From the IMG/VR virus record IMGVR_UViG_3300030095_001747, positions 1 to 36,631 of that record: DNA of 36,631 nt. One strand, written 5' to 3'. Source of the stretch: a virus. Lineage: Duplodnaviria; Caudoviricetes. This document shows, in pieces, positions 3,008 to 36,631 of this stretch. Both the position numbers and the translations under genes were made by a program. Positions within the stretch are counted from its first letter, which is position 1. Each line of letters opens with the position of its first letter. The notes under the pieces are model-generated. The model was not told the DNA's origin, searched no databases, and saw nothing but the letters and a program-made list of their open reading frames with translations.

Positions 3008-3167
3008 CTTTGTTCTTTAAAAACGGCTTGCAATACGCGCTGTATGGACTGCCAGGCTTATTGATAAGCGACATATTCCAGCTGCAATCTTGATAGTTGC
3101 CGATCTCGGCCTCTTCCATGATTTCCGATCCTTTAAGAATAACCAGGACAAAAACTAGGGTTTTCAT
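2997..3167 (-). CDS. Small hypothetical protein with hydrophobic N-terminus and two Cys
   Basis: Probable start at MKTLVFVLVIL, which overlaps the MTase stop (ATGA). The track ORF starts at 3227. Confidence 0.55.
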   Translation of the reverse strand: MKTLVFVLVILKGSEIMEEAEIGNYQDCSWNMSLINKPGSPYSAYCKPFLKNKDEE

Positions 3168-3700
3168 TGGCGGCCTATAAATTCTGTTTCTTTTGTCTGC
3201 ATATACTTGGTGAAATAATACCAGCACACATTATCTTTACCGGTATGCTTACTATCCGGGATCCACTTGACACGACCCACAGACACTATCAACCGGCAAT
3301 AGGTTATTAACTCCGCTGCTTGCTTTGTATGTATCCAATCCGCATCAAATAAAAGCCACGTAGGTTTCAGCGACATGAAATACTCAATCATCGGATGAAG
3401 TAAATCACGCCGCCAGGGAGGATTAGTAATTATCGCATCCGCCTCTAAGATCTTCATCTCGTCGAGTTCCAATGCATCTTGTTCTACGATATCAATACGT
3501 CCTGGCTGTATATCGCTCTTATAGCAGCATCTAAGGCCGGCTAGCTCCAACGTATCCACTAACTGTCCATCGCCAGCACACGGCTCGCAAAACAGCTGTA
3601 CATTCGCTTTATGTAAATGTGGTAGCAACGGATCAACCGCTGCTGGAGGTGTTGGATAGAAATCTCTCGGTATCCGGTCAAATTCACTTCGTTTACCCAT
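3164..3700 (-). CDS. Small phage amino-(N6-adenine-type) DNA methyltransferase
   Basis: DFYPTP, SAM-binding EPCAGDG and catalytic ITNPPW motifs; RBS GAGGA. Confidence 0.85.
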   Translation of the reverse strand: MGKRSEFDRIPRDFYPTPPAAVDPLLPHLHKANVQLFCEPCAGDGQLVDTLELAGLRCCYKSDIQPGRIDIVEQDALELDEMKILEADAIITNPPWRRDLLHPMIEYFMSLKPTWLLFDADWIHTKQAAELITYCRLIVSVGRVKWIPDSKHTGKDNVCWYYFTKYMQTKETEFIGRQ

Positions 3701-5114: not shown

Positions 5115-5948
5115 TTATCCAACACAATCGCCGTCATCCGCCTGGCAAAAATAACCTTGCTGATCGAACACCCAATCGCTTTGTTTGCTTGCATAATTTT
5201 TAAGATTAGTTAGCGGCCGGTCTTTATTAAAAAAGCCATAATCACCCCGGCTAGCGTATTCTTGTTCCTTGTTTTCCCACCATGCGTATCGTTGCGGATG
5301 TTCTCTTAACAGCATGACTTGATGTGCCTCTGACTTTAGAAAACATCCATCACAATTTCCGTACATTGTCTTTCCGTTAATAACCGGCAGCTGTAATGAA
5401 AAATCTTGTTGTGACCAAAAGGCATCAATCGTTTTTTTTGTAACCTTTGCCGGAACGAGCGGCCTCCAGGGAGTTATAATATTATCTATTTTTTTGTCTT
5501 TAAGTCTATGTGGTTCGTCGGCTCTTATACCAACAGCGTTGTGCCATTTTTTCCAGCCGAGGCTTTTTAGATATCGTTTGCTGGTGTTGATCTTGAGTTC
5601 TACTGTGCAAAACCGAATAAGAGCGTGTGGCAATATGCGCTTGTGCTTTATCAGCTGGTCAAATGGTTCTCCGTTACGACTAGCGCTATTGTGGTTTACT
5701 ACTTGTACTCCTGGCTTTTCCTTGTAGAAATACTCCAGCCACGTAATCGGTACATTCCATTTTTCTGCACACTTTTGCACAAAATCATACGTCTGCGGCA
5801 TCTCTCTGCCGGTGTTTTGAAACAATACCTTTGCTCTTTCTGGTATGCCGTTGTTTGCCTGGATGATTTCATGCAATAAATATGCAGACGTGCGGCCACC
5901 AGAAAAAGATATACTTACATTTCCATCCGGCAGCACATAAGAATTCAT
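5115..5948 (-). CDS. PAPS reductase / PP-loop family protein, putative DNA-modification enzyme
   Basis: PP-loop SFSGGRTS, NTGRE, RFCT.ELKI, GIRADE and Cys cluster GNCDGCF. Confidence 0.85.
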   Translation of the reverse strand: MNSYVLPDGNVSISFSGGRTSAYLLHEIIQANNGIPERAKVLFQNTGREMPQTYDFVQKCAEKWNVPITWLEYFYKEKPGVQVVNHNSASRNGEPFDQLIKHKRILPHALIRFCTVELKINTSKRYLKSLGWKKWHNAVGIRADEPHRLKDKKIDNIITPWRPLVPAKVTKKTIDAFWSQQDFSLQLPVINGKTMYGNCDGCFLKSEAHQVMLLREHPQRYAWWENKEQEYASRGDYGFFNKDRPLTNLKNYASKQSDWVFDQQGYFCQADDGDCVG

Positions 5949-6904
5949 CTCGTCAACTCCTCTTTAATTGTCATTCCAATCAGCATTGCGATCTGCGGTA
6001 CAATAGCATTGCCTAATCCTTTTAATCTTTTTGTTCTGTTGGCTTGTTCAGCTGTGACTCTTGGGATGTTAGGTTCGTCCATCCAGGAGGGTATCCCATC
6101 AACCACTCGACCCAATCCGCCGATAAAGTTGCTTTTGTCTGCGTATTCTCTTTTATCATCACGTAGTTTGGCAGCTGCCCCATATGCGCCCTTTTGCCTT
6201 GTTCTATCTTCTCCTTTGTTCTCTCGAATGAGTTTGCTCCCTTGAAATCTCGCGCTGCTGGAGTCGGATACATTTCCAGATAATTTACTGCATCCTTCAG
6301 CTTCACTCCCCATCGGACTCCCTCCTTGTTTACTCTTGAAAACGATCCGTTCTTTAGTTCCACGTTCTTCACTATCCCACCCTCCGTGTCCGATACTCTT
6401 GGACTTGGAAATAATCCAGAGTCTGTTTCTTTGATGGGGTAATCCGACGATCGCTGCGCTTGGAAATACAAACGTCCTTGCGGCGTAGTCTTTGGCTTCC
6501 AGGTCATGTAATACCTCATCCAATCCAAGGGAAACATGCCCATAAACGTTTTCGAAAACGACAACATCGGGTCGCGTGGATGACACAATTCTACTGATTT
6601 CCGGATAGATGTGGCGAGAATCCTCTTTTCCGCCCCTCCTACCGGCTTGCGAAAAGGGCTGACACGGATAACCGGCTGTGAGGATAAAGGGTCTTGGGAT
6701 ATCTCCGGGAATAAATCTTGCTGGATCACTTGCTATTTCCTTAACATCGTCGGCAATCGGTACACCCGGAAAGTTTTTTCTGAGAATATCACGACACCAA
6801 GGCTCAAAATCACATAGCAAATAAGGGTTTTCAGATAAACCGGCCCATCGAAATCCGAGGCTAAAGCCACCAATACCGGAGCAAAGATCAACGTGAGAAA
6901 CCAT
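5945..6904 (-). CDS. C5-cytosine DNA methyltransferase, alpha polypeptide (motifs I-VIII and X)
   Basis: Motifs I DLCSGIGGF, IV GYPCQPFS, VI FENV, VIII PHQRNRLWI and X RLKGLGNAIVP. Motif IX is absent from this frame. Confidence 0.9.
   Translation of the reverse strand: MVSHVDLCSGIGGFSLGFRWAGLSENPYLLCDFEPWCRDILRKNFPGVPIADDVKEIASDPARFIPGDIPRPFILTAGYPCQPFSQAGRRGGKEDSRHIYPEISRIVSSTRPDVVVFENVYGHVSLGLDEVLHDLEAKDYAARTFVFPSAAIVGLPHQRNRLWIISKSKSIGHGGWDSEERGTKERIVFKSKQGGSPMGSEAEGCSKLSGNVSDSSSARFQGSKLIRENKGEDRTRQKGAYGAAAKLRDDKREYADKSNFIGGLGRVVDGIPSWMDEPNIPRVTAEQANRTKRLKGLGNAIVPQIAMLIGMTIKEELTR
6022..6729 (-). CDS. C5-MTase beta polypeptide (TRD and motif IX), nested in an alternative frame
   Basis: GTG start with AAGGA upstream. 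Carries FPSPRVSD and YPTPAARDFKG repeats plus motif IX-like LSADWVEWLMGYPPGWT. Confidence 0.75.
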   Translation of the reverse strand: MIQQDLFPEISQDPLSSQPVIRVSPFRKPVGGAEKRILATSIRKSVELCHPRDPMLSFSKTFMGMFPLDWMRYYMTWKPKTTPQGRLYFQAQRSSDYPIKETDSGLFPSPRVSDTEGGIVKNVELKNGSFSRVNKEGVRWGVKLKDAVNYLEMYPTPAARDFKGANSFERTKEKIEQGKRAHMGQLPNYVMIKENTQTKATLSADWVEWLMGYPPGWTNLTSQESQLNKPTEQKD

Positions 6905-6997: not shown

Positions 6998-7186
6998 TCA
7001 TATCTTGTTAAAGCTTTCGTATTCTACGCGGATAATATCGTCAGCAATAGTATCGACGACATGTTTCTCCGTATAACAATTTCTAGAATACTTCGGCGGT
7101 ATGTCATGCAGCTGCGCAATTTGCAGCAGCGTGTATCCCTGGCCTATCCTATAATTAATGTAGTCTTTCGCTATTTCACGATCCAT
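6998..7186 (-). CDS. Small hypothetical protein (62 aa, possible HTH)
   Basis: RBS AAGGAG; fits the operon after the VRR-NUC gene. Confidence 0.6.
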   Translation of the reverse strand: MDREIAKDYINYRIGQGYTLLQIAQLHDIPPKYSRNCYTEKHVVDTIADDIIRVEYESFNKI

Positions 7187-7535
7187 AATTTTTTATCTCC
7201 TTTGTTTTTGTTGTGGTGTTGAGTAATGCCTTTACATCCTCGAGTGTCTTGCAAACCGCTGTGACACAACCAGCTGACGACAAGGCTTGCAGTGTTTTAT
7301 TTTGTGCTGCCGTTATTGTGTTGCGGCCTACTTTTAGTTCGATAAAGATTGGCGGTGTTCCTGGACAAAAGATTTCAAGATCCGGCCAGCCGGTACACAT
7401 GCCAGCTTTACGCAGCTTGACACGATGCGCGACATGGCTTTTGCCCTCGTTTGGTGAGTGATGAAAGATAGATCCGTCCGGTAAAGCAACACGCAGATAA
7501 TCCGCAACCAGGTTTTGCAGCTGCGCTTCTTTCAT
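7176..7535 (-). CDS. VRR-NUC domain nuclease (putative junction resolvase)
   Basis: E..LQ, GWPDL, FIELK and Q motifs of the VRR-NUC PD-(D/E)XK family. Confidence 0.85.
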   Translation of the reverse strand: MKEAQLQNLVADYLRVALPDGSIFHHSPNEGKSHVAHRVKLRKAGMCTGWPDLEIFCPGTPPIFIELKVGRNTITAAQNKTLQALSSAGCVTAVCKTLEDVKALLNTTTKTKEIKNYGS

Positions 7536-8930: not shown

Positions 8931-9836
8931 ATGCCGCTGCCCGAACTTACACCCGACTATGCTTTGCGTTTTAACTACCATCACCATAGCAATCCAATGT
9001 CGCAGCCTCGAGGACGCAAGCTGTTTGATAAAATAATCATCCGGCCCATGCTCGATAAGCTCTGGAAAGAGGATCCGGATCGTGCCAGGCAATTAGATCC
9101 TAATCGTTCAGCATCCCCACGAATGTTAGCCGGTACGTCCACACAGAAAGCTGTTGATAGTGTGCTAAATATTGATGATGCAGAACCCATGAAACTTGAT
9201 GAAGCGCACTCCTGGGCCAAATCTAAGGGGCTAATTTTCGAGAATAGGCATTTTATCAGCGATTTCCTGGGAAATAGCGACGAAATGGAGATTGAACTCT
9301 ATAAAGAAGAAATTCCGCTGGTTATCAACCATGCACTCGAGGGATTGAAACAAGCCATGTCTAGGGAGAACCGATATGTCGGTGAAATTATTCTCCAGGA
9401 CAAGCTGCCAGGATGCGAACTGCCGCACAACACCCGGCCGGACTATGCGCGACGCGGAGATCTCAAAACAAAATGGAGCAGCGTAAAACGCAAATCATAT
9501 TTACCAAATAATTTATCCGGGCCTTTCGAGCAGAAAGCTGTATACCAAATCGCCGGCTTTTGGGCCTTGAATGGTCAGCAGCCGCCGTTCCTGGTGTACG
9601 CAAACTACAAAGATTTTAAAGTATTTGACCAGGACAACTCACCAGAGTTAAGCGACGAGAACTTAGCCAGGATCGTAAAAGAGATTGCCCGGCATCACCA
9701 GGTAACAGAGCAGCTACTTAAAAAAGCAGACAACCAGGACGATTTGTTTCGCATGGTCGACCCAGAATGGCACGACGGATTTGCCTGGACGCTGCAACCA
9801 GAACTGAAAGAACTAGCAAGGAGAGTATTTAGATGA
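8931..9836 (+). CDS. PD-(D/E)XK exonuclease-like recombination protein
   Basis: RPD..GDLKT motif, a Q..G. motif and an upstream GT..Q helix; precedes the annealing protein. Confidence 0.7.
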   Translation: MPLPELTPDYALRFNYHHHSNPMSQPRGRKLFDKIIIRPMLDKLWKEDPDRARQLDPNRSASPRMLAGTSTQKAVDSVLNIDDAEPMKLDEAHSWAKSKGLIFENRHFISDFLGNSDEMEIELYKEEIPLVINHALEGLKQAMSRENRYVGEIILQDKLPGCELPHNTRPDYARRGDLKTKWSSVKRKSYLPNNLSGPFEQKAVYQIAGFWALNGQQPPFLVYANYKDFKVFDQDNSPELSDENLARIVKEIARHHQVTEQLLKKADNQDDLFRMVDPEWHDGFAWTLQPELKELARRVFR

Positions 9837-10549
9837 AAGATCAGCTGCAAGCAGCCATGAAAGAGATCGATGCTTTAAATAAGAGTGATGGTGTCGATAT
9901 GAAAGGAAAGAAATACACGACAGTTGCCATGCGTGTAGAAGTATTTAGAAAACACTTTCCGGACTATTCTGTGAATACCAGGGTAACAGTTGACGACGGA
10001 AAGCGCGTTATTGTTGTAGCAGAAATATATCCGCCAGGAGCAGAAAGACCGATTGCCACCGGGATAGCAGAAGAGATACGCGGCAGCACAAACGTAAACA
10101 GAACGTCAGCTGTAGAGAACTGCGCCACGTCGAGCGTTGGCCGCGCTTTAGCTGTACTAGGATTACATGGCGGCGAGTTTGCCAGCGACTTTGAGATTGA
10201 TCTTGCAAAACAAAATGGCGCAACGATGGATATGAACGAGGCTATCCAGGCAGCAAAAGAGGCAGAACAAGAAGAAGATGAAGTTATGCAAGACTTGCAG
10301 CAAGCAAGCGATGACTTTCCAGATGAAGAGGCAGAGGGAACTTCTAATAAAAACGATGACATCTTTCAAAGTTTCGTTGATCGCATGGTTAAAGAATTTA
10401 AGTTCGCTAAATCTATCGGGCAGATGAACGCAGTTTTTGCAAAGGAGCAAGCAAACTACAAGCGCTTGAAAGCAGAACGTCCAGCTATGGCACTTATTAT
10501 TGCGGATGCCTATGAACAAAAGGAAAGGAAATTAGATGGAAAAAATTAA
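9833..10549 (+). CDS. Single-strand annealing protein (Rad52/Sak-like)
   Basis: KGK.Y..V..R...FR and AEE.RG..N.TSAVENC.TS.VGRALA.LG motifs; acidic linker. Confidence 0.7.
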   Translation: MKDQLQAAMKEIDALNKSDGVDMKGKKYTTVAMRVEVFRKHFPDYSVNTRVTVDDGKRVIVVAEIYPPGAERPIATGIAEEIRGSTNVNRTSAVENCATSSVGRALAVLGLHGGEFASDFEIDLAKQNGATMDMNEAIQAAKEAEQEEDEVMQDLQQASDDFPDEEAEGTSNKNDDIFQSFVDRMVKEFKFAKSIGQMNAVFAKEQANYKRLKAERPAMALIIADAYEQKERKLDGKN

Positions 10550-11191: not shown

Positions 11192-12019
11192 ATGGATCAA
11201 ATGATTCGAAAATATCCCCCCCAAGACAGACAGAAAGGAGCCACAAACGGCATGAAAAGACTTGTTCACGGCACACCAATTACACCTAAACGATATTTAC
11301 ACCAGCTTAAAGGTCACAGTTTCTGCGTCAGCTACATGCACCCGGAGCAGCTAGAAGATTGCATCAACCTGGTTGGCAAAGATCAGATCTTGATCTTAGA
11401 CAACGGCGCGTTTACTGCTTGGAAAAAAGGTATCACACTTGACGCAGCTTGGTGGGATGGGTTCTACAGCTGGGCCAACGACGCGATGGATCGATGCGAC
11501 CAGGCAGTGTGTGTCATACCGGACGTGATCGGCGGCACTGAGGCAGAGAACATGGCCTTGATCGCAGACGCGATACACAACGACAAAATCAAATACCCCG
11601 AAAGAGCGATGGCCATATGGCACATGAATGAAAGTTTCGAACAGCTAGAAAAGCTGCACAGACTTTTTAACTTCGTAGGTTTCGGCAGCTGCGCCGAGGT
11701 TGACATAGCCAGAAACGGCCCGGCCAGCGCATACTTCAACAAGGTCAAACAAGCTTTCGCCCATATGGATTATTGGGATGCAAATTACGGAATAGAAAAT
11801 AGACCCTGGATCCACATGATGCGAGGTTTAGGAGTGCTGCACAAGATCGGTTTCGATAGTGCCGACAGCTGCAACATAGCAATGAACCACTGCTACAAGC
11901 GAGATAAGATGGTTCACCACGTCAAGCAGTTTGCTGACAGACTCGAGGCAAAAGTTAATCACCAGGTATTCAACGATCTTCCATTGTTCAATACCGCAAC
12001 ATTGAAAGGAGTTGCTTAA
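11192..12019 (+). CDS. TGT-fold (queuine tRNA-ribosyltransferase/DpdA-like) protein; probable start at 11252
   Basis: LDNGAF, VIPDV, WH, HMMRG and SADS motifs, similar to phage TGT-like transglycosylases. Confidence 0.6.
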   Translation: MDQMIRKYPPQDRQKGATNGMKRLVHGTPITPKRYLHQLKGHSFCVSYMHPEQLEDCINLVGKDQILILDNGAFTAWKKGITLDAAWWDGFYSWANDAMDRCDQAVCVIPDVIGGTEAENMALIADAIHNDKIKYPERAMAIWHMNESFEQLEKLHRLFNFVGFGSCAEVDIARNGPASAYFNKVKQAFAHMDYWDANYGIENRPWIHMMRGLGVLHKIGFDSADSCNIAMNHCYKRDKMVHHVKQFADRLEAKVNHQVFNDLPLFNTATLKGVA

Positions 12020-12462: not shown

Positions 12463-12488
12463 AGGCCGCGCTTGCGGCCTTTTTTTTT
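12463..12488 (+). terminator. Intrinsic terminator between the accessory operon and the convergent integrase
   Basis: AGGCCGC-GCTT-GCGGCCT followed by a T run. Confidence 0.85.
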
Positions 12489-13716
12489 AGTAACGCAGCG
12501 CTGCTTGATCTTCTCTTGCAGTTTCTTCCGGATCCTCTGCGTAATCCTCTAGCCAATGGCCGTAAGTTTTTGTTGTGGTGACAGTGTTGCTATGGCCCAG
12601 GTTGTTTGACACTTTCCAGATGCCATCCTTTGTGCCGCCTTTTAAGGCCAGCTGAGCGGAGGCATAGTAATGCCTTAGTTCGTGCCAGGTAATCCGAGGA
12701 ACACCGGCTGCAACGGCTGCTTTGGCTAGCTTCTTGATGAACATCGAGGGATGTATTGTTAGACCGCGTGTGTCTTGCCAAATAAGATCCTCTTTCGGCG
12801 GCTTGCCCTGGCGCATGTATTCCTCTTGCAGCGCCTTAACAACTACCGGCGGAAACCGCAATCGCCTGGTTGACTTTACTGTTTTTGGTTCCGCAACATT
12901 TCGATATCGATCGATACCTTTGTTGACCGCGACGGATCGTAAATCAAAGTCTACGTCGCTCCAAGTCAATGCTCTTTGTTCGCCCTGGCGCAATCCTGTT
13001 TGTGCTGCAAAGAACGCAGCTAGTCGCCAGTTACATTTTGTATAACCATGCAGCTGATTGCTATTGCCGGTCGGCAGCTGCTCGAGGATCCGCTCGACAA
13101 CATCGCGTTGCACTCTGTCGATCTTATCTTTCCTGGCAGATTTTTTTCCGCCATTTTTCGGCCGCGTTTCCCGGAACATATTGTGATCGGCATATCCAGC
13201 TTTGACGCAGTACGATCCGAAATCAGTGTAGCTGGCCCAATAATTTTTTACAGTTTTATGCACTCGATTTTTCGTAGTTGCCGGTGTAATGATTGTGAAT
13301 ACAGTAGTCGGATCCCCAAAAAATTCTGCCGCAGTTTTGTCGCCAACAGTTTGATTGTTTATTTTGATGTTGAGAAGAAAGTTTATATCGCGCATTGAGT
13401 TTTCAAAACTATGCTCTCGAATAGTTCCGTTTGCCACGTCGTCAATCCTAGATTTTTTGTAGCAACAAATTTCACCAGTCGTCTTACACTTCTCGCACTC
13501 AAAAATGTTTCTGACTTTTTTTTCTGCGCGGCCGGACGAATACAATCTAAGATTGCTTGCAATCTCTTCAGCGTATTTAATAGCCTCTTGTTTTGTGTAG
13601 AAAAATTTTCTTTTGTGATTGTGTTTTCTGCCGTCAACGCACCAGGGTCTTTTACTTCGTGATGCCTTGTAATCGTACTGGCGAACAAGATTATTTACTA
13701 GCTCTGTATTTAACAT
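12487..13716 (-). CDS. int: Tyrosine integrase
   Basis: Catalytic R (TGLRQGE), K (PKT), HELRH, LGH and Y (TYGH); N-terminal arm-binding-like region. Confidence 0.95.
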   Translation of the reverse strand: MLNTELVNNLVRQYDYKASRSKRPWCVDGRKHNHKRKFFYTKQEAIKYAEEIASNLRLYSSGRAEKKVRNIFECEKCKTTGEICCYKKSRIDDVANGTIREHSFENSMRDINFLLNIKINNQTVGDKTAAEFFGDPTTVFTIITPATTKNRVHKTVKNYWASYTDFGSYCVKAGYADHNMFRETRPKNGGKKSARKDKIDRVQRDVVERILEQLPTGNSNQLHGYTKCNWRLAAFFAAQTGLRQGEQRALTWSDVDFDLRSVAVNKGIDRYRNVAEPKTVKSTRRLRFPPVVVKALQEEYMRQGKPPKEDLIWQDTRGLTIHPSMFIKKLAKAAVAAGVPRITWHELRHYYASAQLALKGGTKDGIWKVSNNLGHSNTVTTTKTYGHWLEDYAEDPEETAREDQAALRY

Positions 13717-18069: not shown

Positions 18070-20472
18070 TTATTTCTCCATCAATAGCCAACCCTGAGTA
18101 TCCCCAGAGAATACCAGAGCAAATCCAGCTCGTTCTGTGGCAACAGTCATGTCCGACGCATCGCCTTGTACCTTCTTGCCGTTACGAGCCACAGTTAAAT
18201 TGTTTGAATCAAATGTTGCACTCAAGTCTATAAACCGCACAGTATCACCAGCAGTAGGGCTGGCTGGTAATGTCGCTGTAACTGCACCACCTGACGTATC
18301 TACAAAGTACCCTCGACTTGACGCTACATTAAATGCTGACGTTTTTGTTTCCCATGTAAAATCTGTCTCAACAGTAACCGAACCCCCCAAAGAAATAGCA
18401 GAACCATTAATAGTTATAGCTGAGTTTGCAAGAGCAGAGTTTGGAACAGATGTTAATCGTGCATTAGGTAGTGTGCCAGTAGAGAGATTAGAAGCATTGG
18501 TTGTATCAACAACAGCAAAAGTATTATCACCTCGTAAGAATGTAGTATTATCTCTTGTGCCAGAAGAACCAAGCCTTGCTACTGGTACTGTACCAGAGCT
18601 AATGTTTGATGCACTTATAGCCGCCACATTGAATGTACCGAAACCAACAATGTCTACTACATCGCCATTAGCCAGGGCAGACGCAAAAGTAACTGTATCT
18701 CCACTTGTAACCGTCACGTCTGATCCGTTGACTTGCTTGACCCCATTTAAAAAACAATCAATGAATCCCGCATCGTATGCTAAAGTGTTGCCGTTTGCGT
18801 CTGCTCCTGTTACGGATGTTGGTGTGCCAGAGATATTATAGGTAAATCGAGCAGAGGTTCCATTTACTGTTGACCCAGCCGCGGCCCAGCCAGAAGATTT
18901 ATAAACCTTTAACTCGTTAGCAGTTGTATCAAAATATAAATCACCAACATCTAATGATGCTGTCGGTGCAGAAGATGCGATTCTATATCTATCAGCAAAC
19001 GAATTAACTCCGCTAACATTATTTGCTACTGTAGTTACGTTTGAAGATATGCCAGCTACAGTTCCAATATTTGATACAACGCCACTTGCATTTAAGTTTG
19101 CAATGTTCGTAATAACACCACTAGCATTTAAGTTAGCCATATTCGTAACATTAGTCGTTGTACCAAGATTACCCATCGCTGTTACATTCGCGGATGTGCC
19201 TATATGACCCATTGCGGTTACGTTTGCGTTTGTACCTAGATGACCCATTGCAGTTACGTTTGCGTTTGTGGCTAAAATTGCCATGTCATCTGTAATTGTG
19301 GAATCTGCTAATATTGCCAAATCATCAATAATCGTAGAATTTGCGAGTTGCGCCATATCAGCAATTACTGTATCTGTGCCAAGTAATGCCATGTCTGCAA
19401 TTACTGCACTTGCAGCGAGAGCAGTAATATTTGAATTGGCACTAGCTACTGCATCAATATTCGTTTGTTCAGAACTAGTTGGCTTTACATCTATCCAAGC
19501 AGACCCATTATAGACTTTCATGCCTGTTCCATCTGTCTTGAAATATAAATCTCCTGTGTCTAAATTTGACGATGGATCAGAACTAGCAGCACCGTGATAT
19601 TGCCCTTGAAACGTAGCCAATGCAGTTTCACTTGAGTTCTTTGCAGTAACACTCGCATCTCGTGCTGTTTCACTTGCAGCTTGTGCAGTTTGTGCATCAG
19701 TTTCACTAGACGCTGCTGCCGTCGCGCTGGCTGCTGCTGCGTTTTGACTTGTCGTAGCACTCGCAGCATCCACAATTAACGACCATTTTGCGCTATCTGT
19801 ATTGGTTGTTAATGGCTGCGATCCAGACGACGTATGCGCCGTTACACAAATAAATATATTATTCGTGCTAGTATCCTTTACCAAATCACGCACAACGTAT
19901 GCTGTACTTGCCGCCCAATTTCCTTTTAATGTTCCTAGTTCTTGTGCAATGCTAAGTTCTCCGGATGTATCAAAAGCAATCAGCTTACTCGCACGATCCG
20001 TTGCTGACGTTGTAAACTCGGTCGATGTCATAGTATTAGTACGCGATAGCTTGAGTGATCGGTCTAATTCTTCTTCGTGCTGCTGCACCATACGGACGAG
20101 CTTGTCCATGTTTGTTTCCAGGGTTTCCGCTGGAAAAGGATCGTTAGCCACTAGATCCATTGTCTGAGTGTTTGCTAGCTCCGATCGTATAACAACTGTT
20201 TCGCCGGATACTGGCCTAAAATCACTTGTCGAGTAATGTGCATCCGAGGCATTGCCGGTATTAAATTTAAATAGAACTGTGCCGCCGCTCGATACTCCAG
20301 CACCAGTGACAACATAATGTGTATTGAGTGTCTTTACTGTTTCTACACCGGTCGAGGATCTAATAATAACTGTAAGATCCGCGTCTGCAAAAATCTTAAA
20401 ATCATATGCAAAAGAGTGAGTCGATCCGTTTCCCGAATAACTCTTCGAGATCGTCGTTGTACTGATTGTCAT
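18070..20472 (-). CDS. Major tail fibre protein (T7 gp17-like N-terminal anchor)
   Basis: N-terminal SYSGNG...F.Y.FKIF...DL.V motif, an Ala-rich stretch, 12-aa repeats and two GDLYF...KVY...W modules. Confidence 0.85.
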   Translation of the reverse strand: MTISTTTISKSYSGNGSTHSFAYDFKIFADADLTVIIRSSTGVETVKTLNTHYVVTGAGVSSGGTVLFKFNTGNASDAHYSTSDFRPVSGETVVIRSELANTQTMDLVANDPFPAETLETNMDKLVRMVQQHEEELDRSLKLSRTNTMTSTEFTTSATDRASKLIAFDTSGELSIAQELGTLKGNWAASTAYVVRDLVKDTSTNNIFICVTAHTSSGSQPLTTNTDSAKWSLIVDAASATTSQNAAAASATAAASSETDAQTAQAASETARDASVTAKNSSETALATFQGQYHGAASSDPSSNLDTGDLYFKTDGTGMKVYNGSAWIDVKPTSSEQTNIDAVASANSNITALAASAVIADMALLGTDTVIADMAQLANSTIIDDLAILADSTITDDMAILATNANVTAMGHLGTNANVTAMGHIGTSANVTAMGNLGTTTNVTNMANLNASGVITNIANLNASGVVSNIGTVAGISSNVTTVANNVSGVNSFADRYRIASSAPTASLDVGDLYFDTTANELKVYKSSGWAAAGSTVNGTSARFTYNISGTPTSVTGADANGNTLAYDAGFIDCFLNGVKQVNGSDVTVTSGDTVTFASALANGDVVDIVGFGTFNVAAISASNISSGTVPVARLGSSGTRDNTTFLRGDNTFAVVDTTNASNLSTGTLPNARLTSVPNSALANSAITINGSAISLGGSVTVETDFTWETKTSAFNVASSRGYFVDTSGGAVTATLPASPTAGDTVRFIDLSATFDSNNLTVARNGKKVQGDASDMTVATERAGFALVFSGDTQGWLLMEK

Positions 20473-20475
20473 AAT

Positions 20476-22950
20476 TTACCTCGTTAGATTGTCAAATCTT
20501 GGGCCGCGTTGTGGCTCCGTTCTTCCTGGCCTCCACCAATAGGAATTTCCGTATAACTTTTTCTGACGTTTTTCTAAGCGCCTCCGCTTTGCTTTTATCT
20601 TAGGATCTGCCATTTCTGATAGTTGATCCCAAACTCTTCTTTCCAAAGCTAACCGGCCATACCAAAGAGTTCCGCCAGGGATATATCTCTTAGTGAAGTT
20701 TACGGCCTCTGCTGCAAAGTTTGTGTCTTCACCCTGGGCGAGTTGCACTAAATTACCAACGGAGAGATTTATTAGATCATTACCAAAACCAACTACCGGC
20801 CCAGCTACTGTTGTTGCAATTCCTTGACCAAACCTATTGACGTTAGAAAATAAAAAATCTCCATATATTCCAAACCCACCAGATGCCATAAGAGCATGGC
20901 CCCAAAACTTAGGATCATCCATTGGTCGAGGATCCCGGCCCTTTGCTAGTTCTTTCATTTGTATACCAAAAGCTGCCAACACTGTACCGGCAATAATAAA
21001 TTGCGCCAGGTATCCAACTTTTTTATTGTTCTTTAACTCTGCAACACCGCGAAACATATGCGTATTCATAATCGTAACACCAAAGTTTTTATACATAGCA
21101 AAAGATCGTAAGATCTCTCCGCCTAACTCTCCAGGTTGTGTATTAGCCAATAAACTCAATCTTGACCGCAGTGAACCTGTGGGTACGGCAAATTCCGTTT
21201 CCATGTTAATCATTTCTAATATTCTTGTGCCTAGTCGCTCTGCCTCTCCAGCATCAATGTCAGTACGCTCGATAAGTTTTTGTACGTCAAAGAATGTTGC
21301 TCCTTCATACTCAAGCAATTCTGTCTGTCGTATAACTTCCCAATCTGCCGGTTTAAATCCATAGTTATCCATAGCACGACGCAACCCCTCGTCTAGCTGT
21401 GCAAAAGGCTTATCGACGTTATCAGCTAGTGTACCTAGAAACTGTTGACCAAAGGCCCATCGACCAGCTTGTGTCCAGGGCGAAAGCAAAGAGCCTCGCA
21501 TTACTAAATCACTTATACGTTTTGTTATTTCCGGGCCACTTATTTCACCAACATAACGCATTTGGGCAGACGCTATTGTAGTCCAGTGATCGGCAATCAA
21601 TCCTAATCGTGTCGCAAGTTTGCCTCTCTCCTTTGCTTTCATAGGATTCATAAACTTTAAAACTTGATTTAAAGATTTTACCTGAGGCAGTCCGTTAAAT
21701 TGTCGGGCCAGAGATTGACTATTGAGATCTGTAATAGCTGTGTAAAATGTTGAACCAAGCTGAGCAGCGGTAAGAATATTACGTAATCCAGCGAATCCGT
21801 TTGCTATGACACCGCTAATAGGTGAATTAAGAGTTCCCATATGCGCGCGGTACAGTGTATCCATTTTTGTTGCGGCTTTGTTTGCTCTGCTTTCTCCCAA
21901 TCCAGTTTCTGCCACTCGTTTTCGCAGCGATGTTTTTATAGCATTTATAGTTGTAACAGGGTTTGGCCCCAAAACTTCCATCATAGCAATATCGCGCGAT
22001 AACGACGTTATATGCGTAATCATCGTATCGAAAGCATTGACGTTGCCAAATTCTTTTTGATACTCAAGCCATTGGTCGCCGTTTTTAAATTTTAGAAAGC
22101 GATGATCTTGTCGTCGATTAGCCATAGACCGACCTTGCATCGCACCGCCAGGACGTACTTTATTTAATCCATCTTGTGTTATAGTTGTATATACGTCGTT
22201 AAGAACAATCCGTAATCTAGCCTCGTTAAAAGCTAAACCAGTTTGTTCATCAATCATGTTTTCAATATCGAGCTTTGCGATCGTAAAATTTACCCACTCA
22301 TCACGCGATTTCTTTCTGATCCGGACAGCATCATGTACTTGTGGCATACCCCAATTACGTAACTTAGGTATTGCACCACCAGCTGCATTGAATCTTTTAC
22401 GCAGCATATCCGTTGTTTGTGTCCAGGCATCCGCCATTTCTCTAGCTGCCGTATCACCGGTGTTTTCGCCAAACAACTCACGCACCATGTTTTTTTGCTT
22501 TGCTTTTTGCTGCGTTTCTCCAAAAATGTTTCTTTTGAATGAGGCTAGTATTTCGTCCATTCTTTTAAATGCGATGCTTTTTATGGCATCTGCTCTGCTC
22601 TCTACAGACGAAAACTTCTGATCGCGTACATGACCAAGAAGATTTATTGCTGCATCTGCTGGATCCTGGCGGCCAAATGGTGTTTTATGTGTGTCTAGGA
22701 TCTGCTCGATCTCTTGCCACTTACGTGCTTGCAGTAGCTTTTTTCTGCGTGTTTCGTGTTTTTGTCGCCGGATCGTTGCTAAAGTGTCGGCTGCTGCTCG
22801 AGCATCCGCCGGAGCATTTGCCATATTTCCTCGATACTCACCGGAAAGCTGGTCAAACATTGTATTGATTTCGTTTGCATCCTCTTCCTTAATCAATCCC
22901 TCTCGAACACCATCATTTATGCAGTTTTGAAACGTACTCATTTGACGCAA
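20476..22950 (-). CDS. Internal virion/ejection protein (824 aa)
   Basis: Large helical ORF in the podovirus ejectosome position. Confidence 0.75.
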   Translation of the reverse strand: MRQMSTFQNCINDGVREGLIKEEDANEINTMFDQLSGEYRGNMANAPADARAAADTLATIRRQKHETRRKKLLQARKWQEIEQILDTHKTPFGRQDPADAAINLLGHVRDQKFSSVESRADAIKSIAFKRMDEILASFKRNIFGETQQKAKQKNMVRELFGENTGDTAAREMADAWTQTTDMLRKRFNAAGGAIPKLRNWGMPQVHDAVRIRKKSRDEWVNFTIAKLDIENMIDEQTGLAFNEARLRIVLNDVYTTITQDGLNKVRPGGAMQGRSMANRRQDHRFLKFKNGDQWLEYQKEFGNVNAFDTMITHITSLSRDIAMMEVLGPNPVTTINAIKTSLRKRVAETGLGESRANKAATKMDTLYRAHMGTLNSPISGVIANGFAGLRNILTAAQLGSTFYTAITDLNSQSLARQFNGLPQVKSLNQVLKFMNPMKAKERGKLATRLGLIADHWTTIASAQMRYVGEISGPEITKRISDLVMRGSLLSPWTQAGRWAFGQQFLGTLADNVDKPFAQLDEGLRRAMDNYGFKPADWEVIRQTELLEYEGATFFDVQKLIERTDIDAGEAERLGTRILEMINMETEFAVPTGSLRSRLSLLANTQPGELGGEILRSFAMYKNFGVTIMNTHMFRGVAELKNNKKVGYLAQFIIAGTVLAAFGIQMKELAKGRDPRPMDDPKFWGHALMASGGFGIYGDFLFSNVNRFGQGIATTVAGPVVGFGNDLINLSVGNLVQLAQGEDTNFAAEAVNFTKRYIPGGTLWYGRLALERRVWDQLSEMADPKIKAKRRRLEKRQKKLYGNSYWWRPGRTEPQRGPRFDNLTR

Positions 22951-25900
22951 TACCCCATCCGCTCGATCATCTTTTCTTCATAATCGATCTCATCTTTAAT
23001 CTGTCGCATTGTTTGGTTGACGACTGTGATGTCGCCAGTAGCCGGGTCTGTTACCTGGCCGACCGGAACTTCATAATCTAGCTGCTGGTCTGTAACTTCT
23101 TCGCTATCTCTAAGACTTGCTGTTTGGCTCTCGGTGAGTTCGCTCTCTGGATCCCTCGTTCCTCCGCCGCGTCGTAGTCGAATATCAGTGTCTTTGATGA
23201 CTTCTCTTGTGTCTTCGATGAGGACTTTGCCGTCGTCGATTTCTCCGTTATTGTCGATCCGCGTGTAGCCATCAGCTTTCCCTTGTTGTTTTAGCGTGTC
23301 GTATGTTTTACCAGGATTATCGCCCACTTGACGAACATAGTCTGGATTTATTAATCGTCCGGTCTTAACAAAACGCATAAACATTCTGTTTCTTGCATTA
23401 CTATAAGTAACAGACATATCAACTAAATCAACAGAATATCCCTTTTCTTTTAACTTAGTGATGAGCTTTTCTATTGACCCAGGACTACCGCCAACTTTTG
23501 GTATTACGACATTATCACCAAACTCTAACGCAAGATTAAGAACTCGCTCTGCAAGGTCGCTGCTTTCTTCGTGTACTGCGTTTGCGCCTATACCGCCCTC
23601 ATACTCTGGTAATAATTTTTTTGCCTCGTCACTATCAATAATAGCTGCGTTCATCTTACGTGCTATCGGATTGGCTAGCGTTGATTTGCCGGCAGCTGGT
23701 GGCCCTAATACAATTGCAGCACGTCTATTTTGGTTTATGTACTGACCTTGTGGCAGATCTAATCCATCGTCCTTCCAGCCCATATTTCTTGCGCCACGAT
23801 ATAAAGCAGCGATTGCATCAGCATAACCTTGTATTTGTTCTCCAACGTCAACACCCATTTTTTTAAGAGATGTTGTATTAAATACTCTCGATGTTTCCCA
23901 GGTTTCTGTACCATAACCAGCCATTGTGCTAGTGTCTGTTTTCGATTGTGCCTCCTCTATAGCTTTTGTAACCGCTGGATGTGCGTCTATTGTAGCCTCT
24001 TCAGCACCCTCATCTAGTATACGTCCTAAATCGTTTCGTAATTCATCATCAGATTGGAAAGCCTCGCGCGGCGTTTTAGGCGGTGGCTCCTGGAACATAT
24101 CCGCTGCCAGCTGATCCATTTGCTGATTGGATCCTGGGCCGGCTGCAACGTCAAATGTTTCTAAACTTTGCTCAATTGCGCTTGCTGGTACTTCGCCGTT
24201 CTCCGGCGGAGCATTGATAGCGCGTCCTGGATTGCTAGGGATTTCCCCAAAGAAATCGCCTCGACCAACTGCTCCTCGGACAGACTCGACAAAGCTGTCT
24301 GTAGCCGCTGCATATTTTCCATCTCTTTTGGCGGCTCTGGCGGCAGCTGTGAGGTCGTCACTGAGTTGTCCTCTTCGGTTTGCAAGGGTTTGGATGAGGT
24401 CGATTGCTTCTGCATCTTTTTGGATTTTTTGCTCATTCGCACTCCTAACCAGCTTATTACCAGCTGATTCAAACTTTGTTTGATTACGTACTATAGTATT
24501 AAAGGCGCTTTTATCACGCTGCAATATTTTTATCGCGTTATCGAGAACCTTTGCTCTTTCAAAATATAGGCTTTCTTCTTCGATCTTATCGCCAAACAAA
24601 CTCTCCTGGTTGACCTTTTCTGTGCCGCTATCCATAACTTGCCGGGTAACAGCCTCTGTCTGCACGTCGTTTTCCGGCTTTACTTTGGCAATAACATTCA
24701 TTGCAGCACGCTGCATTGTGGCATCATCCGGGATCATTCGGCCCACTACGCTAGCTTGTTGTGGTGAAACAAGGCCATTCTTAAATAAACCAAATGCCTC
24801 GTCGTCCTCGATGTTAACTATGTTACGTGCCATGCGTACCAGCGCAGATCGTGGCGGTAACTCACCAAACAGTTTTTTATCACCACGTAAAACCTTTACA
24901 GCATCAAGAACAGTACCGGTTCCCTCGGCAATATTTTTCATAGCAGCAACAACCATTGCTTGCTCTCTTGATATGCCGTCTTTTTCACGCAAGACAGATC
25001 CTAGAAGAAATACGTCCTGGCTAGGATCCTGGCTTTTTATGCGTTTTGCTAGACCTAATCGCTGGTGTCCATCTGCTATAAAGAACTTACCATCAGCTTG
25101 CTCGTATACGACCACAGTGCCAGCTTTGACCGGATCCCATGTTTTTACGTCTTTTAGTCTTTCTGTTACACCAAACTCGTCGCCGCCCTCTTTAAACTGG
25201 AACGCTTTTGCATCGACGTTTAGTTCCTCTACCTCGAACCTAGACACAACATCATTTATGGTCGCTCTCGGCTTGACTTCGGGTTCTGCCTCTAACGATG
25301 CCTCCAAACCTTTTTTTGCATCATTGAGAACATCTAATAATTCCTTTGCATCTTCTAGGTTTTTCTTAGATTCTAGCGCTTCTATTCTTTCGTATGCAGC
25401 AAAGAAATCGTCGTTTGTAAGTTCTTTTGTTTGCCCTAAATCATCTAGTTCTTTTAAGATTGCCTCTTCTTCTTCTTTAAATTGTCTTTCAAATAAAGTT
25501 CTTGCCTCTATAATCTCTTTTATTTCTTTGTTTACCGTATCTAAACTTTCGGCAAACTGACCAGGGTTAGCTTGTTTTTGCAACTCAGCTTTTGTTACAC
25601 CGCTTGCCGGTTCGTCATTTATACCAGGTAACACACCCTCGTTTACCGCGTCATCGACCGCATCCATTCTATTTAAATGCTCATCAACATCATTAATAGG
25701 ATTGTTTGCAAACGTATTTTCGATCTCATCGACCATATCCGCCGCTGTATCGGCCGTTTGACTAAATCTTTGACCAGCAGATTGGTGAGCGCTCTTTATG
25801 GCCTCATAGCCTTTTTTTGCCTGGCTAGCTGTTAGCTTTACTGTGTCACCTCCGACCTTGAAAGCAAGAGGAAACGCAGCAGATAACGCTGCCGCCGCTC

Positions 25901-26585
25901 CAACATTTGTTGCAAAGGTTTCCCAGGTATAAGGTAACTCTAAAGTTTTGTACCAATCTTGCACTTCGGCTTGTATTAAGACTTCACTAGCGCCACCGAT
26001 AATTGCCTCACGAAACATCAATCCATACAATGTTTTTAGACCAGGCATAATCATGCCGGTTCCTATTGTAGATTGAATAACAGGGTCATCTAAAGATCCA
26101 ACAGCTGCACCGGAAAACTGCCCCAACCATTTTCTCCAATCAGTAGATCTTGCAGCAATTTCGTCGTTTTCTTCCGCCCTATTCTGTGCAAGTTTTATTG
26201 CACGATCCATAATAAAATCGTGCGTTAGCTGCTCAAACTCCACACCTAAAGTTTCTGTATTATTTTTTGCAAAATCTATAATTTTATCGACATCATGCCG
26301 ATACTTAAATTGATTTGTACCGCGTGTTGCGCCACCACTAAAAATGCCCTTGTTTAAGTGCCTACCTGGATTAAAAAACTCTTCGCCGGTCTTTCTCTGT
26401 ATCTCGTCGATAAATGGCTGCCAGGCATCTTGCAACATAACGGCACGAGAGTTTGAATTACCTCTTGCTCTTTGATCTTCTCTTGAGGCGCTAAAGTTTT
26501 GCGTAAACGATGATTGTGGCTCTGACGTGCCAGTTAATTTGTCGAGATAAGAACGACTTCTATATTTCTGAAATATTGCGCTCAT
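22938..26585 (-). CDS. Large internal virion protein with ParB-like and zeta-toxin-like P-loop domains
   Basis: VVVYEQADG.FFIADGHQRL (ParB-like); VLGPPAAGKST, IIDSDEAK and VHEES (zeta/P-loop kinase). Confidence 0.8.
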   Translation of the reverse strand: MSAIFQKYRSRSYLDKLTGTSEPQSSFTQNFSASREDQRARGNSNSRAVMLQDAWQPFIDEIQRKTGEEFFNPGRHLNKGIFSGGATRGTNQFKYRHDVDKIIDFAKNNTETLGVEFEQLTHDFIMDRAIKLAQNRAEENDEIAARSTDWRKWLGQFSGAAVGSLDDPVIQSTIGTGMIMPGLKTLYGLMFREAIIGGASEVLIQAEVQDWYKTLELPYTWETFATNVGAAAALSAAFPLAFKVGGDTVKLTASQAKKGYEAIKSAHQSAGQRFSQTADTAADMVDEIENTFANNPINDVDEHLNRMDAVDDAVNEGVLPGINDEPASGVTKAELQKQANPGQFAESLDTVNKEIKEIIEARTLFERQFKEEEEAILKELDDLGQTKELTNDDFFAAYERIEALESKKNLEDAKELLDVLNDAKKGLEASLEAEPEVKPRATINDVVSRFEVEELNVDAKAFQFKEGGDEFGVTERLKDVKTWDPVKAGTVVVYEQADGKFFIADGHQRLGLAKRIKSQDPSQDVFLLGSVLREKDGISREQAMVVAAMKNIAEGTGTVLDAVKVLRGDKKLFGELPPRSALVRMARNIVNIEDDEAFGLFKNGLVSPQQASVVGRMIPDDATMQRAAMNVIAKVKPENDVQTEAVTRQVMDSGTEKVNQESLFGDKIEEESLYFERAKVLDNAIKILQRDKSAFNTIVRNQTKFESAGNKLVRSANEQKIQKDAEAIDLIQTLANRRGQLSDDLTAAARAAKRDGKYAAATDSFVESVRGAVGRGDFFGEIPSNPGRAINAPPENGEVPASAIEQSLETFDVAAGPGSNQQMDQLAADMFQEPPPKTPREAFQSDDELRNDLGRILDEGAEEATIDAHPAVTKAIEEAQSKTDTSTMAGYGTETWETSRVFNTTSLKKMGVDVGEQIQGYADAIAALYRGARNMGWKDDGLDLPQGQYINQNRRAAIVLGPPAAGKSTLANPIARKMNAAIIDSDEAKKLLPEYEGGIGANAVHEESSDLAERVLNLALEFGDNVVIPKVGGSPGSIEKLITKLKEKGYSVDLVDMSVTYSNARNRMFMRFVKTGRLINPDYVRQVGDNPGKTYDTLKQQGKADGYTRIDNNGEIDDGKVLIEDTREVIKDTDIRLRRGGGTRDPESELTESQTASLRDSEEVTDQQLDYEVPVGQVTDPATGDITVVNQTMRQIKDEIDYEEKMIERMGYCVK

Positions 26586-32543: not shown

Positions 32544-33603
32544 TTATTCGTTACAAGCTATTTCTATTACCATCTCTTCTTGCATCCTGGATGCACCAAA
32601 AGTTGAACAGTAATAGATTTGTGTTGAATAGGATTTATCTGGACGAGGATCTATCTTTGCAGTCACATCCTTTCCCAATGCCATTACTACACCTTCACGC
32701 GCATACGCATAGCATAGTCGTGATGTACCATCGTCTTTTAAACGATTGGATGTAATAAATTTAAATCCCATGAATGAATCAACAGTTCCGTTTACTAGCG
32801 CCTTTCGTACCATCTACGGCTTTCGCCGCCGCTTTCGCGTTTGTGGTCTGGACTTTATCTTTACCCACAACTGAATGTTTGGGTATCCCCTGTCAAGTCT
32901 CTACACCTTCCTATTTCTAGGCTTGGCTCGGTATTACCATTTTAAAGGCTTCACCGAATTTAAGGGAGTTTCGTCTAAGTGTTTCCACTTAGATAGGCAA
33001 AGTGTTTACCGAGTTAAAATCCGCTGACGTTACTGAAGTTGTGTTGAGTAGATCCTCGATCTGCTCGGGAGATACAACAATATATCTCTCGATTGAGGGA
33101 TCAACACTGTTTTGATCCATTATTTTTTTAGCACTAATTAGCTTAGCGATTGTCAAACCGGCACTGCCATGCACGATTTTCTGACCACTAGGCAACGCTG
33201 TGCTAGTTCCACCGGACACACCAGTTTTGGCTGTACCGCCTAAAGCATCAATGATTTCATCATCCATTGCTCTGCCGATAGCTGCCGCTGCTGCCTTGCC
33301 GTATGTGGACTCTGGAGAGATAAGCATACGTATCTTATCCTGGTCATCGACTAAATCCGCATATTCATAGTCGGACATCGTGACCATTCTCCTCGCGTGA
33401 GGAGTATCCATAATTGGTGTTGACGCATGCCGGCTAGCTCTCTTTTGCGCCACTGCCGAACCGATCTGTTCGAAAAAGGCTTTCTCGCCGTTAACAGTTT
33501 CTTGTCGTACAGAATTACGCAGTAATGAACCCATTTGCTGCGATAATAACTGTATGTTTTGAGAAAACTGATTAACGAAAGCCGTAGTGATTTGTGTACT
33601 CAT
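32544..33603 (-). CDS. Major capsid protein, two exons (33603-33008 and 32805-32544), 285 aa after splicing
   Basis: Joining TCG GT|A AAG GCG gives SADFNSVKALVNGTVDSFMGFKF, a continuous MCP motif. The spliced length of 858 nt is in frame. Confidence 0.93.
32806..33007 (-). ncRNA. Group I self-splicing intron (202 nt, IC3-like core, no ORF)
   Basis: 5' exon ends in U with a U-G pair in P1; terminal G; P3/P7 pseudoknot; conserved AAUUCGGUGAA, CCGAGCCAAGC, GAAGGUGUAGAGACU and AAAGUCCAG; four GAAA tetraloops. Confidence 0.93.
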
Positions 33604-36351: not shown

Positions 36352-36624
36352 CTAACTCTTTTTATTGCGCCTAGCAAAGTTTCGTGCAGCCTCTACGCTG
36401 CCAAATCCCCAGGCTTTTAGCGCTAGTGCCTTGCGCGTTGGCTCACCTTTTTCGTTTTTCATTGGGCCACGCATGCCGGCAAATCTGGCGGCAAAACTAA
36501 CACGACGGCCATCATTTCCCGATTTCTGCGGACTCTTAAGATTGCTGCCCTCAGTACGTTTGAAGAACTTACGACCAGCTGCGTTTAATCCGCCCTTTGG
36601 ATTCTGGTATTTCTTGGCGACCAT
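36352..36624 (-). CDS. Small basic phage protein (90 aa)
   Basis: NPKGGLN..GR and SF.ARF.GM.GP...G.PTR.ALAL..W motifs, common in marine podoviruses (recalled, not searched). Confidence 0.8.
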   Translation of the reverse strand: MVAKKYQNPKGGLNAAGRKFFKRTEGSNLKSPQKSGNDGRRVSFAARFAGMRGPMKNEKGEPTRKALALKAWGFGSVEAARNFARRNKKS

Positions 36625-36631
36625 TAGGCTT
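36441..36631 (+). repeat. Imperfect terminal direct repeat, right copy
   Basis: ~86% identical to 1-191 without gaps. Confidence 0.95.

Follow-up and report, generated by a model that had tools for sequence, protein, structure and literature searches.

The window (the whole stretch of viral DNA analyzed here, 36,631 nucleotides) is the genome of a marine podophage of 36.6 kb with a completeness rating of 100%, and profile searches place its portal, Bbp19-like, scaffold, capsid, and tail genes all on the minus strand. The capsid protein is 60 to 67% identical to the capsids of HTVC010P-type pelagiphages, with 22 records in the 60 to 80% identity band. Pelagiphages have low GC contents, and the 44% GC of this genome suggests that its host is probably other than SAR11. 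The two halves of the capsid protein align to positions 1 to 204 and 202 to 293 of PF19821, and exon 2 is 98 to 100% identical to the C-terminal part of intronless relatives. The capsid locus is laid out as follows.

33008..33603, minus strand: major capsid protein exon 1, codons 1 to 198 plus two bases of V199 (PF19821 / PHROG 3437)
32806..33007, minus strand: 202-nt ORF-less group I intron, best labeled as IC3/tRNA-intron type (RF00028, covariation, RNA contigs)
32544..32805, minus strand: major capsid protein exon 2, last base of V199 to the stop codon (PF19821)

Intron boundaries

A preliminary description, made from the sequence alone, held that a complete ORF-less group I intron at 32806..33007 splits the capsid gene at the junction FNSV/KALV, with omega-G at 32806, that splicing restores the frame, and that unspliced mRNA ends at a TAA in P2; it proposed an Rfam search, the comparison of homologues for compensatory changes and intronless alleles, and a search of metatranscriptomes for sequence across the junction. 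Its coordinates and junction prove exact. Rfam model RF00028 matches 32836-33017 on the minus strand at 68.6 bits (gathering score, 50; E = 1.5e-15), the only Rfam match in the whole window, and the intron has a folding z-score of -3.8, with none of 200 shuffled sequences equally stable.

The last base of the 5′ exon is U 33008, and omega-G at 32806 gives an intron of 202 nt. Holding the 5′ site constant, we tested 28 Gs between 32870 and 32781 as 3′ splice sites: 32806 yields a stop-free protein of 285 aa, as in intronless relatives; 32788 yields 279 aa with six conserved residues (KALVNG) deleted; and for the remaining 26 candidates the frame stops by 226 aa. Alternative 3′ splice sites are therefore rejected, only 32806 restoring the full 285-aa capsid. 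In unspliced RNA, the TAA at 32991-32989 ends the frame at 204 aa, so that full-length capsid of this genome needs splicing, a dependence that the preliminary description had also deduced.

The capsid reading is continuous through FN[ST]V-K/R-A/S-L in 60 of 78 assessable homologous loci; among the best 80 capsid relatives in IMG/VR, these 60 are uninterrupted at the site, 15 have an intron at the exact position, 3 have one six codons downstream, and 2 are truncated. Two further readings of the broken frame were rejected: a sequencing or assembly artifact, because the same intron is present in four other contigs of near-identical phages and in 44 distinct versions at the site, and programmed frameshifting or readthrough, because insert lengths fall in all three frames (19, 12, and 13 introns) and a stop occurs within six codons in 44 of 44.

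Conserved structure

Motif scans raised the total to 85 loci (some on the same contig), with 44 distinct introns of 188 to 253 nt at V199, the boundaries of which were set by motif (boundaries at non-IC3 sites are approximate). We aligned 42 of the 44, leaving out two introns of 252 to 253 nt that belong to another class, and the structure supported by this alignment consists of the following elements.

32996..33010, minus strand: P1 with the internal guide sequence; 5′ splice site at the U-G wobble 33008/32998 (across 42 homologues, 100% of cells paired)
32802..32805, minus strand: 3′ exon strand of P10, pairing with 33002-32999 (matching flank in 44 of 45 carriers)
32974..32993, minus strand: P2, with GAAA loop and in-frame stop at 32991-32989 (7 of 8 pairs change on both sides)
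32886..32967, minus strand: P3 pseudoknot, 32967-32962 with 32891-32886 (5 of 6 pairs covary)
32957-32952/32933-32928, minus strand: P4, inside the P3 span (covariation)
Within the P3 span 32886..32967, minus strand: P5, P6, and P6a, the last at 32921-32910 (covariation)
32850..32901, minus strand: P7, 32901-32895 with 32855-32850, the 5′ strand inside the P3 span (five invariant pairs and one covarying)
32899/32851, minus strand: predicted guanosine-binding G-C pair in P7, assigned from the established group I structure
32885-32862, minus strand: P8, enclosed by P7 (two-sided changes)
32806..32848, minus strand: P9 region ending in omega-G 32806, with an extended P9.0, 32848-32844 with 32812-32807 (covaries)
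32839-32830 and 32829-32816, minus strand: two GAAA-capped P9 hairpins

Across the 42 introns, 96.2% of cells are paired, and both partners change in 35 of the 61 pairs; no shuffle out of 500 is as high, and slid controls pair at 30 to 42%, a comparison that favors the structure as drawn, since both the window sequence and the alignment went into it. The two-sided changes seen in P2, P3, P4, P5, P6, P6a, P7, P8, and P9.0 are direct evidence for the structure. The U-G pair at the 5′ splice site is found in 42 of 42 introns, the terminal G is invariant, and P7 is 100% paired. Carriers also fix synonymous bases for P1 and P10, with CGGT before and RAAG after the site in 44 of 45, versus 1 of 51 noncarriers of the same set.

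The general core is that listed in the preliminary description, with amendments: P4 is 6 bp long, and the outer U-G partner once counted in it belongs to P6; P5, P6, and the extended P9.0, all left out of that list, exist; the sixth, covarying pair of P7 had been missed; and of the two P9 hairpins, both present in the window, the first is poorly conserved (54% of cells paired). In the window and about 18 other homologues, P8 takes the form CCC/GGG plus an A-rich asymmetric loop, a putative receptor for L2; in the others P8 is short. The receptor motif of IC3 introns runs CCC/GGG and then an A-rich asymmetric loop. A GNRA loop L2 with a receptor in P8 is described as an IC3 trait (PMC2275092).

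The in-frame stop in P2 is likewise conserved. All 40 main-lineage introns have it as their sixth codon past V199, as TGA in 22, TAG in 11, and TAA in 7, with TGG in none (Fisher P = 1.4e-5, uncorrected for kinship), and about nine switches among stop codons are counted on a tree built without those columns. At the aligned columns of 77 tRNA-type introns, a stop triplet occurs in 13. Cycling among all three stops reads as a clean sign of selection for a stop, and the avoidance of TGG may have a structural cause. An early in-frame stop is a known trait, thought to aid folding (PMC3984707).

Splicing in ocean RNA

Four RNA runs (X1 to X4) were examined, all as assembled contigs at depths of 2.5 to 4.5, with at least 31 nt per side as the bar for bridging the splice joint. 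In X1, a 244-nt contig skips exactly the 202 nt, with 158 and 86 nt on its two sides; with just 2 other letters within the 158 nt of exon 1, this contig is near-identical to the window there and thus carries the flank of the intron-bearing allele. The same joint occurs in X3, where one side is 21 nt (below the bar), so that it is bridged by at least 31 nt in one run only. X2 covers the unspliced 3′ junction, and X4 holds an intronless allele with the other flank. All 10 intronless near-identical DNA contigs carry a different flank, and in the four of them compared, the 30 nt before the site contain 9 differences. Splice-compatible intronless DNA alleles occur in other clades (L011, L420, L445, and L461), so the joined contig could in principle stem from DNA. 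A metagenome scan for the end of exon 1 yielded one contig, which carries the intron and is probably identical to L001. The intron is real and very likely active, the basis for splicing being these low-depth RNA contigs.

One X1 contig runs from omega-G back 201 nt to intron base 2 (33006), as in a head-to-tail circle. The junction itself is observed; the freed intron likely closes into a circle of 201 nt, minus the added G and the first A, a register that we infer and in which the added guanosine would pair with the C of the guide sequence and the first A would lie opposite the guide G. The junction lends indirect support to the predicted protein-free, guanosine-dependent self-splicing. The T4 td intron circle also forms with loss of a dinucleotide. 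Circles truncated at the 5′ end are the normal fate of Azoarcus-type introns, as described in PMC13168695.

Affinity to tRNA introns

The P4-P5 core motif of this intron recurs in about 1,900 stretches of GTDB genomes. Among the 120 bacterial loci listed of these, 111 received intron-containing tRNA calls, mostly Leu, Arg, and Met, some with loose or wrong boundaries and a few that do not span the motif; having been picked by a motif of this intron, the bacterial set is biased. On a covariance model built from the 42 V199 introns and used to score kin, 78 bacterial loci reach 66 to 153 bits, compared with 47 to 49 bits for ORF-less introns of the same size and another class at the same codon and 19 to 23 bits for T4 td and nrdB, whose scores are depressed because of their ORFs. 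Viral loci with the P6-P7 motif received intron-tRNA calls in 38 of 80 cases (L085 to L160), some of which may be host tRNAs beside prophages; a 2014 review knew phage introns only from protein-coding genes. A tree of 103 cores places the capsid introns among tRNA introns, with weak deep support.

The architecture is consistent with subgroup IC3: P5 is 3 bp with a short loop, and 3 nt separate P7 from P3, which leaves no P5a-d extension and no P7.1/P7.2. P7.1/P7.2 is a feature of IA introns. Absence of the P5a-d extension is given as an IC3 criterion in PMC11835236, and phage introns have mostly been filed under IA subgroups (PMC11878797). Kinship by core motif, model scores, and tree makes IC3 the best label, and the intron appears to be kin to bacterial and viral tRNA introns and not of the T4 type, the affinity that the preliminary description had proposed.

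Distribution among related phages

Among 15 near-identical contigs (capsid at least 97% identical, window included), the intron is present in 5 and absent from 10, 3 of which carry a 248-nt intron at codon 71/72 instead. A quick capsid tree of 98 rows requires 11 changes, at least 9 gains or losses being forced by well-supported branches. Intron and capsid distances are weakly correlated (Mantel rho of 0.29, 0 of 2,000 permutations), with one clear intron swap (L099). Around the site, locus L011 matches the capsid haplotype of the carriers L014 and L017, yet it lacks the intron, which suggests either a precise loss or a permissive allele that is unoccupied. The intron site is flanked by a divergent tract of about 30 to 45 nt; mosaic tracts also occur elsewhere in the capsid gene, so this one is not unique.

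Within a set of 253 distinct near-full related capsid genes, enriched for carriers by the motif scans, 73 have insertions (18 of them two or three, and some genes three introns) and 180 have none. All 95 insertions are ORF-less, span 188 to 268 nt, and lie at about a dozen sites. The same gene also has close relatives of the V199 intron at codons 47, 53, and 205; each of them follows GGU and shares the GCC guide. The best tree groups them with the V199 introns (21 rows, support of 89), and their nesting within the V199 clade is suggested only, lacking statistical support (AU P = 0.12). At the same codon, L043 and L099 form a distinct sublineage of this first class. A second, IA-like ORF-less class of about 240 to 266 nt occupies the same codon (L035, L036, and L040), codon 71/72 (L399, L401, and L406), and many other capsid sites (L206, L209, L213, L223, L250, and others); the introns of L035, L036, and L040 (252 to 253 nt) resemble those of phage DNA-polymerase, td, and nrdD genes and are those scoring 47 to 49 bits on the family model.

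No nuclease-bearing version of the intron was found in scans of viral contigs, and 0 of the 95 insertions exceed 268 nt. There is no ORF within the 202 nt that could encode a homing endonuclease, and profile searches of the genome found no match to HNH, HNH_3, GIY-YIG, or LAGLIDADG_3, in agreement with the preliminary description, and no reverse transcriptase; Endonuclease_7 had no match in the genome, in a search whose control matched nowhere either. The capsid neighborhood is syntenic across related loci without an added nuclease gene, and none lies within 2.5 kb of the capsid in the 61 representatives scanned of 127 clusters (1,121 ORFs).

The cultured Pelagibacter phage HTVC120P (MH598807) has a T7-like capsid annotated as gp29 and gp30, and between the two lies a 197-nt element (19609-19805; in L269, 2988-3196) that scores 172 bits on the family model and whose removal gives a protein of 325 aa. 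Its guide GCG faces an exon ending in CGU, a compensatory change. The deep-sea phage contig KT997847 holds two such elements in a T7-like capsid gene (L270, 2987-3203 and 3696-3896; 3′ ends approximate). A second capsid family has the same ORF-less ribozyme type. Neither record annotates an intron, and the word “intron” is absent from the main text of the HTVC120P preprint.

Discussion

Capsid-gene introns and ORF-less phage introns are already known, and the surprise that the preliminary description attached to an intron in a capsid gene was overstated. LittleE has a capsid intron and BAKA/Optimus have a 265-nt tail-gene intron (Pope et al. 2013, PMC3706429), Tuc2009 has a capsid intron (cited in PMC3706429), and crAss-like phages have introns in the major capsid protein gene (PMC7886860); in all of these, as here, a group I intron that is spliced at the RNA level splits a virion structural gene. 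The BAKA intron is ORF-less like ours, whereas the LittleE and crAss-like examples are described with endonuclease domains. New are the tRNA-type ribozyme in capsid mRNA and the nuclease-free persistence of an intron family: a whole family is present here at about a dozen sites, nuclease-free and tRNA-intron-like. In the literature searched, we met no description of an IC3-type intron in a phage capsid gene, nor of any intron in pelagiphage or HTVC010P-type capsid genes.

The psbA intron of S-PM2 is about 212 nt long. Like the capsid intron, it is a small group I intron that has no ORF and interrupts a highly expressed marine phage gene (PMC6083498, PMC3984707), but whereas S-PM2 has the free-standing F-CphI, we found no partner nuclease adjoining the capsid gene or in the genome. 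The introns of T4 td, nrdB, and nrdD and of Bastillevirinae are likewise phage mRNA introns with an early in-frame stop (PMC3984707), differing in their IA architecture, their location in DNA-metabolism genes, and, mostly, their nucleases (PMC11878797). Close in design is the Azoarcus intron, which, as described in PMC13168695, shares the absence of an ORF, of P5abc, and of P7.1/7.2, a short P1, GNRA-capped P2 and P9, and 5′-truncated circles. The likeness in size drawn in the preliminary description holds (202 versus 205 nt); its placing of the intron at about the smallest known natural group I ribozymes is right as to Azoarcus-like size, but the intron is not the smallest, since relatives at the same site reach 188 nt. 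Unlike the Azoarcus intron, the capsid intron is part of a phage mRNA that is translated; its P2 contains an in-frame stop, its P9.0 is extended, it has two P9 hairpins, and its circle closes at base 2 instead of at the L-3 and L-5 sites that Azoarcus uses.

The locus holds a compact group I ribozyme related to bacterial tRNA introns, precisely removed from capsid mRNA in the ocean, and we think it probable that it persists as a tolerated selfish passenger and not as a regulator. Ribosomes on exon 1 would halt at the stop codon present six codons into the intron, and this halt would free the intron core to fold. The guide sequence pairs with the exon ends through P1 and P10, as their covariation shows; by standard group I chemistry, cleavage at 33008/33007 would be made by a free guanosine and the exons then joined by way of omega-G 32806, the joined product being that seen in the RNA contigs, while the freed intron would become the 201-nt circle. 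Without a nuclease, the intron would pass down together with the capsid gene, and recombination between coinfecting relatives would add or remove it as a short block, as we infer from its patchy distribution on the tree and from the divergent tract beside it. Vertical descent with gain and loss by recombination is the best reading of its history, and the intron may help or burden the phage slightly. An intron without a nuclease is expected to disappear with time if nothing drives it; we found no driver of its persistence in the genome, the introns, or the capsid neighborhood.

Such a driver could be a homing endonuclease that cuts, or once cut, the intronless site, against which the intron protects its carrier, either in trans, by collaborative homing of the S-PM2 psbA/F-CphI type, or through an ancestral intron-borne nuclease since lost. 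The occupation of one codon by two unrelated intron classes and a sublineage of the first, together with a divergent tract such as coconversion would leave, agrees with this life cycle, which has published precedent (PMC6083498, PMC3984707). We nonetheless consider it unlikely, given insertions that never exceed 268 nt, a genome without matches to the four nuclease profiles, a syntenic neighborhood lacking an extra nuclease gene within 2.5 kb, and intron divergence that broadly tracks capsid divergence; a nuclease of another family, or a distant gene in other genomes, may exist. The preliminary description had likewise suggested that the intron might shield the site from a competitor's nuclease; no such enzyme turned up near any of the capsid genes. 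Spread could also take place at the RNA level, with excised introns reverse splicing into abundant capsid mRNA at guide-matching sites and becoming fixed through cDNA and recombination, no nuclease being needed. The introns after GGU at codons 47, 53, and 205, with their common guide and their grouping with the V199 introns in the best tree, are what this route would produce, as are ORF-less introns at about a dozen sites, and the circular excised intron of one RNA contig exists in situ; L011, which looks like a precise loss, would also call for cDNA or an unoccupied permissive allele. We rate such spread as decidedly improbable: the genome has no detected reverse transcriptase, the nesting has no statistical support, and a guide-exon match is needed for survival whatever the insertion route. 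Its boldest version, that a tRNA-derived ribozyme lineage colonized the capsid mRNA of some of the most abundant phage groups in the ocean and spreads by guide-directed reverse splicing without a homing endonuclease, we hold to be quite doubtful; if true, it would be the first natural RNA-level mobility of group I introns in phages.

The preliminary description had also raised the idea that the intron gates virion assembly. In that case, splicing dependent on GTP, Mg2+, and translation state would time capsid synthesis to host condition, and the need for splicing to make full-length capsid, the conserved early stop that couples splicing to translation, and the strong selection on structure could all be read in its favor. 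Efficient removal alone already predicts selection on structure and stop, however, and the intron is missing from 10 of 15 near-identical contigs, 3 of which have the codon 71/72 intron instead, and from the 180 of 253 related genes without an insertion, in a set enriched for carriers. With most near-identical phages lacking it and at least nine gains or losses on the capsid tree, the intron looks like a passenger rather than a switch on capsid production, and the gating proposal is not supported; we regard an adaptive gate as highly improbable.

The intron is a tRNA-type (IC3-like) ribozyme operating in a heavily translated phage mRNA, with a sequence trace of adaptation in a stop that is kept as its letters change, and it reveals that the capsid marker gene of abundant marine podophages harbors a large family of introns without nucleases. 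Gene callers render intron-bearing capsids as split or truncated, gp29/gp30 of HTVC120P being an example. Because HTVC120P is a cultured phage-host pair, the persistence of ORF-less introns and their colonization of sites are directly testable, and the natural variants of 188 to 205 nt, with their rich covariation, are useful compact ribozymes.

Other genes of the window

Amid the internal virion genes, 22938-26585 (minus strand) encodes a protein of 1,215 aa, residues 956 to 1114 of which form a Zeta-toxin-like P-loop kinase domain (PF06414, E = 5.8e-20). PAPS-reductase-like, two methyltransferase, and queuine tRNA-ribosyltransferase-like genes at 5115-6904 (minus), 3164-3700 (minus), and 11192-12019 (plus) suggest an encoded DNA modification system, and an integrase at 12487-13716 suggests that the phage is temperate. 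A likely recombination module at 8931-10549 (plus) and 7176-7535 (minus) comprises a PD-(D/E)XK-like protein, a Sak-like single-strand annealing protein, and a VRR-NUC nuclease; the genome likely codes for a Sak-type annealing protein and a PD-(D/E)XK-like protein, which we count, as leads only, in favor of the passenger reading. Copies of a DUF6321 gene lie at both ends of the record (1-191 and 36450-36631) and are similar, not identical, a pattern that a nearly circular assembly of mixed strains would give.
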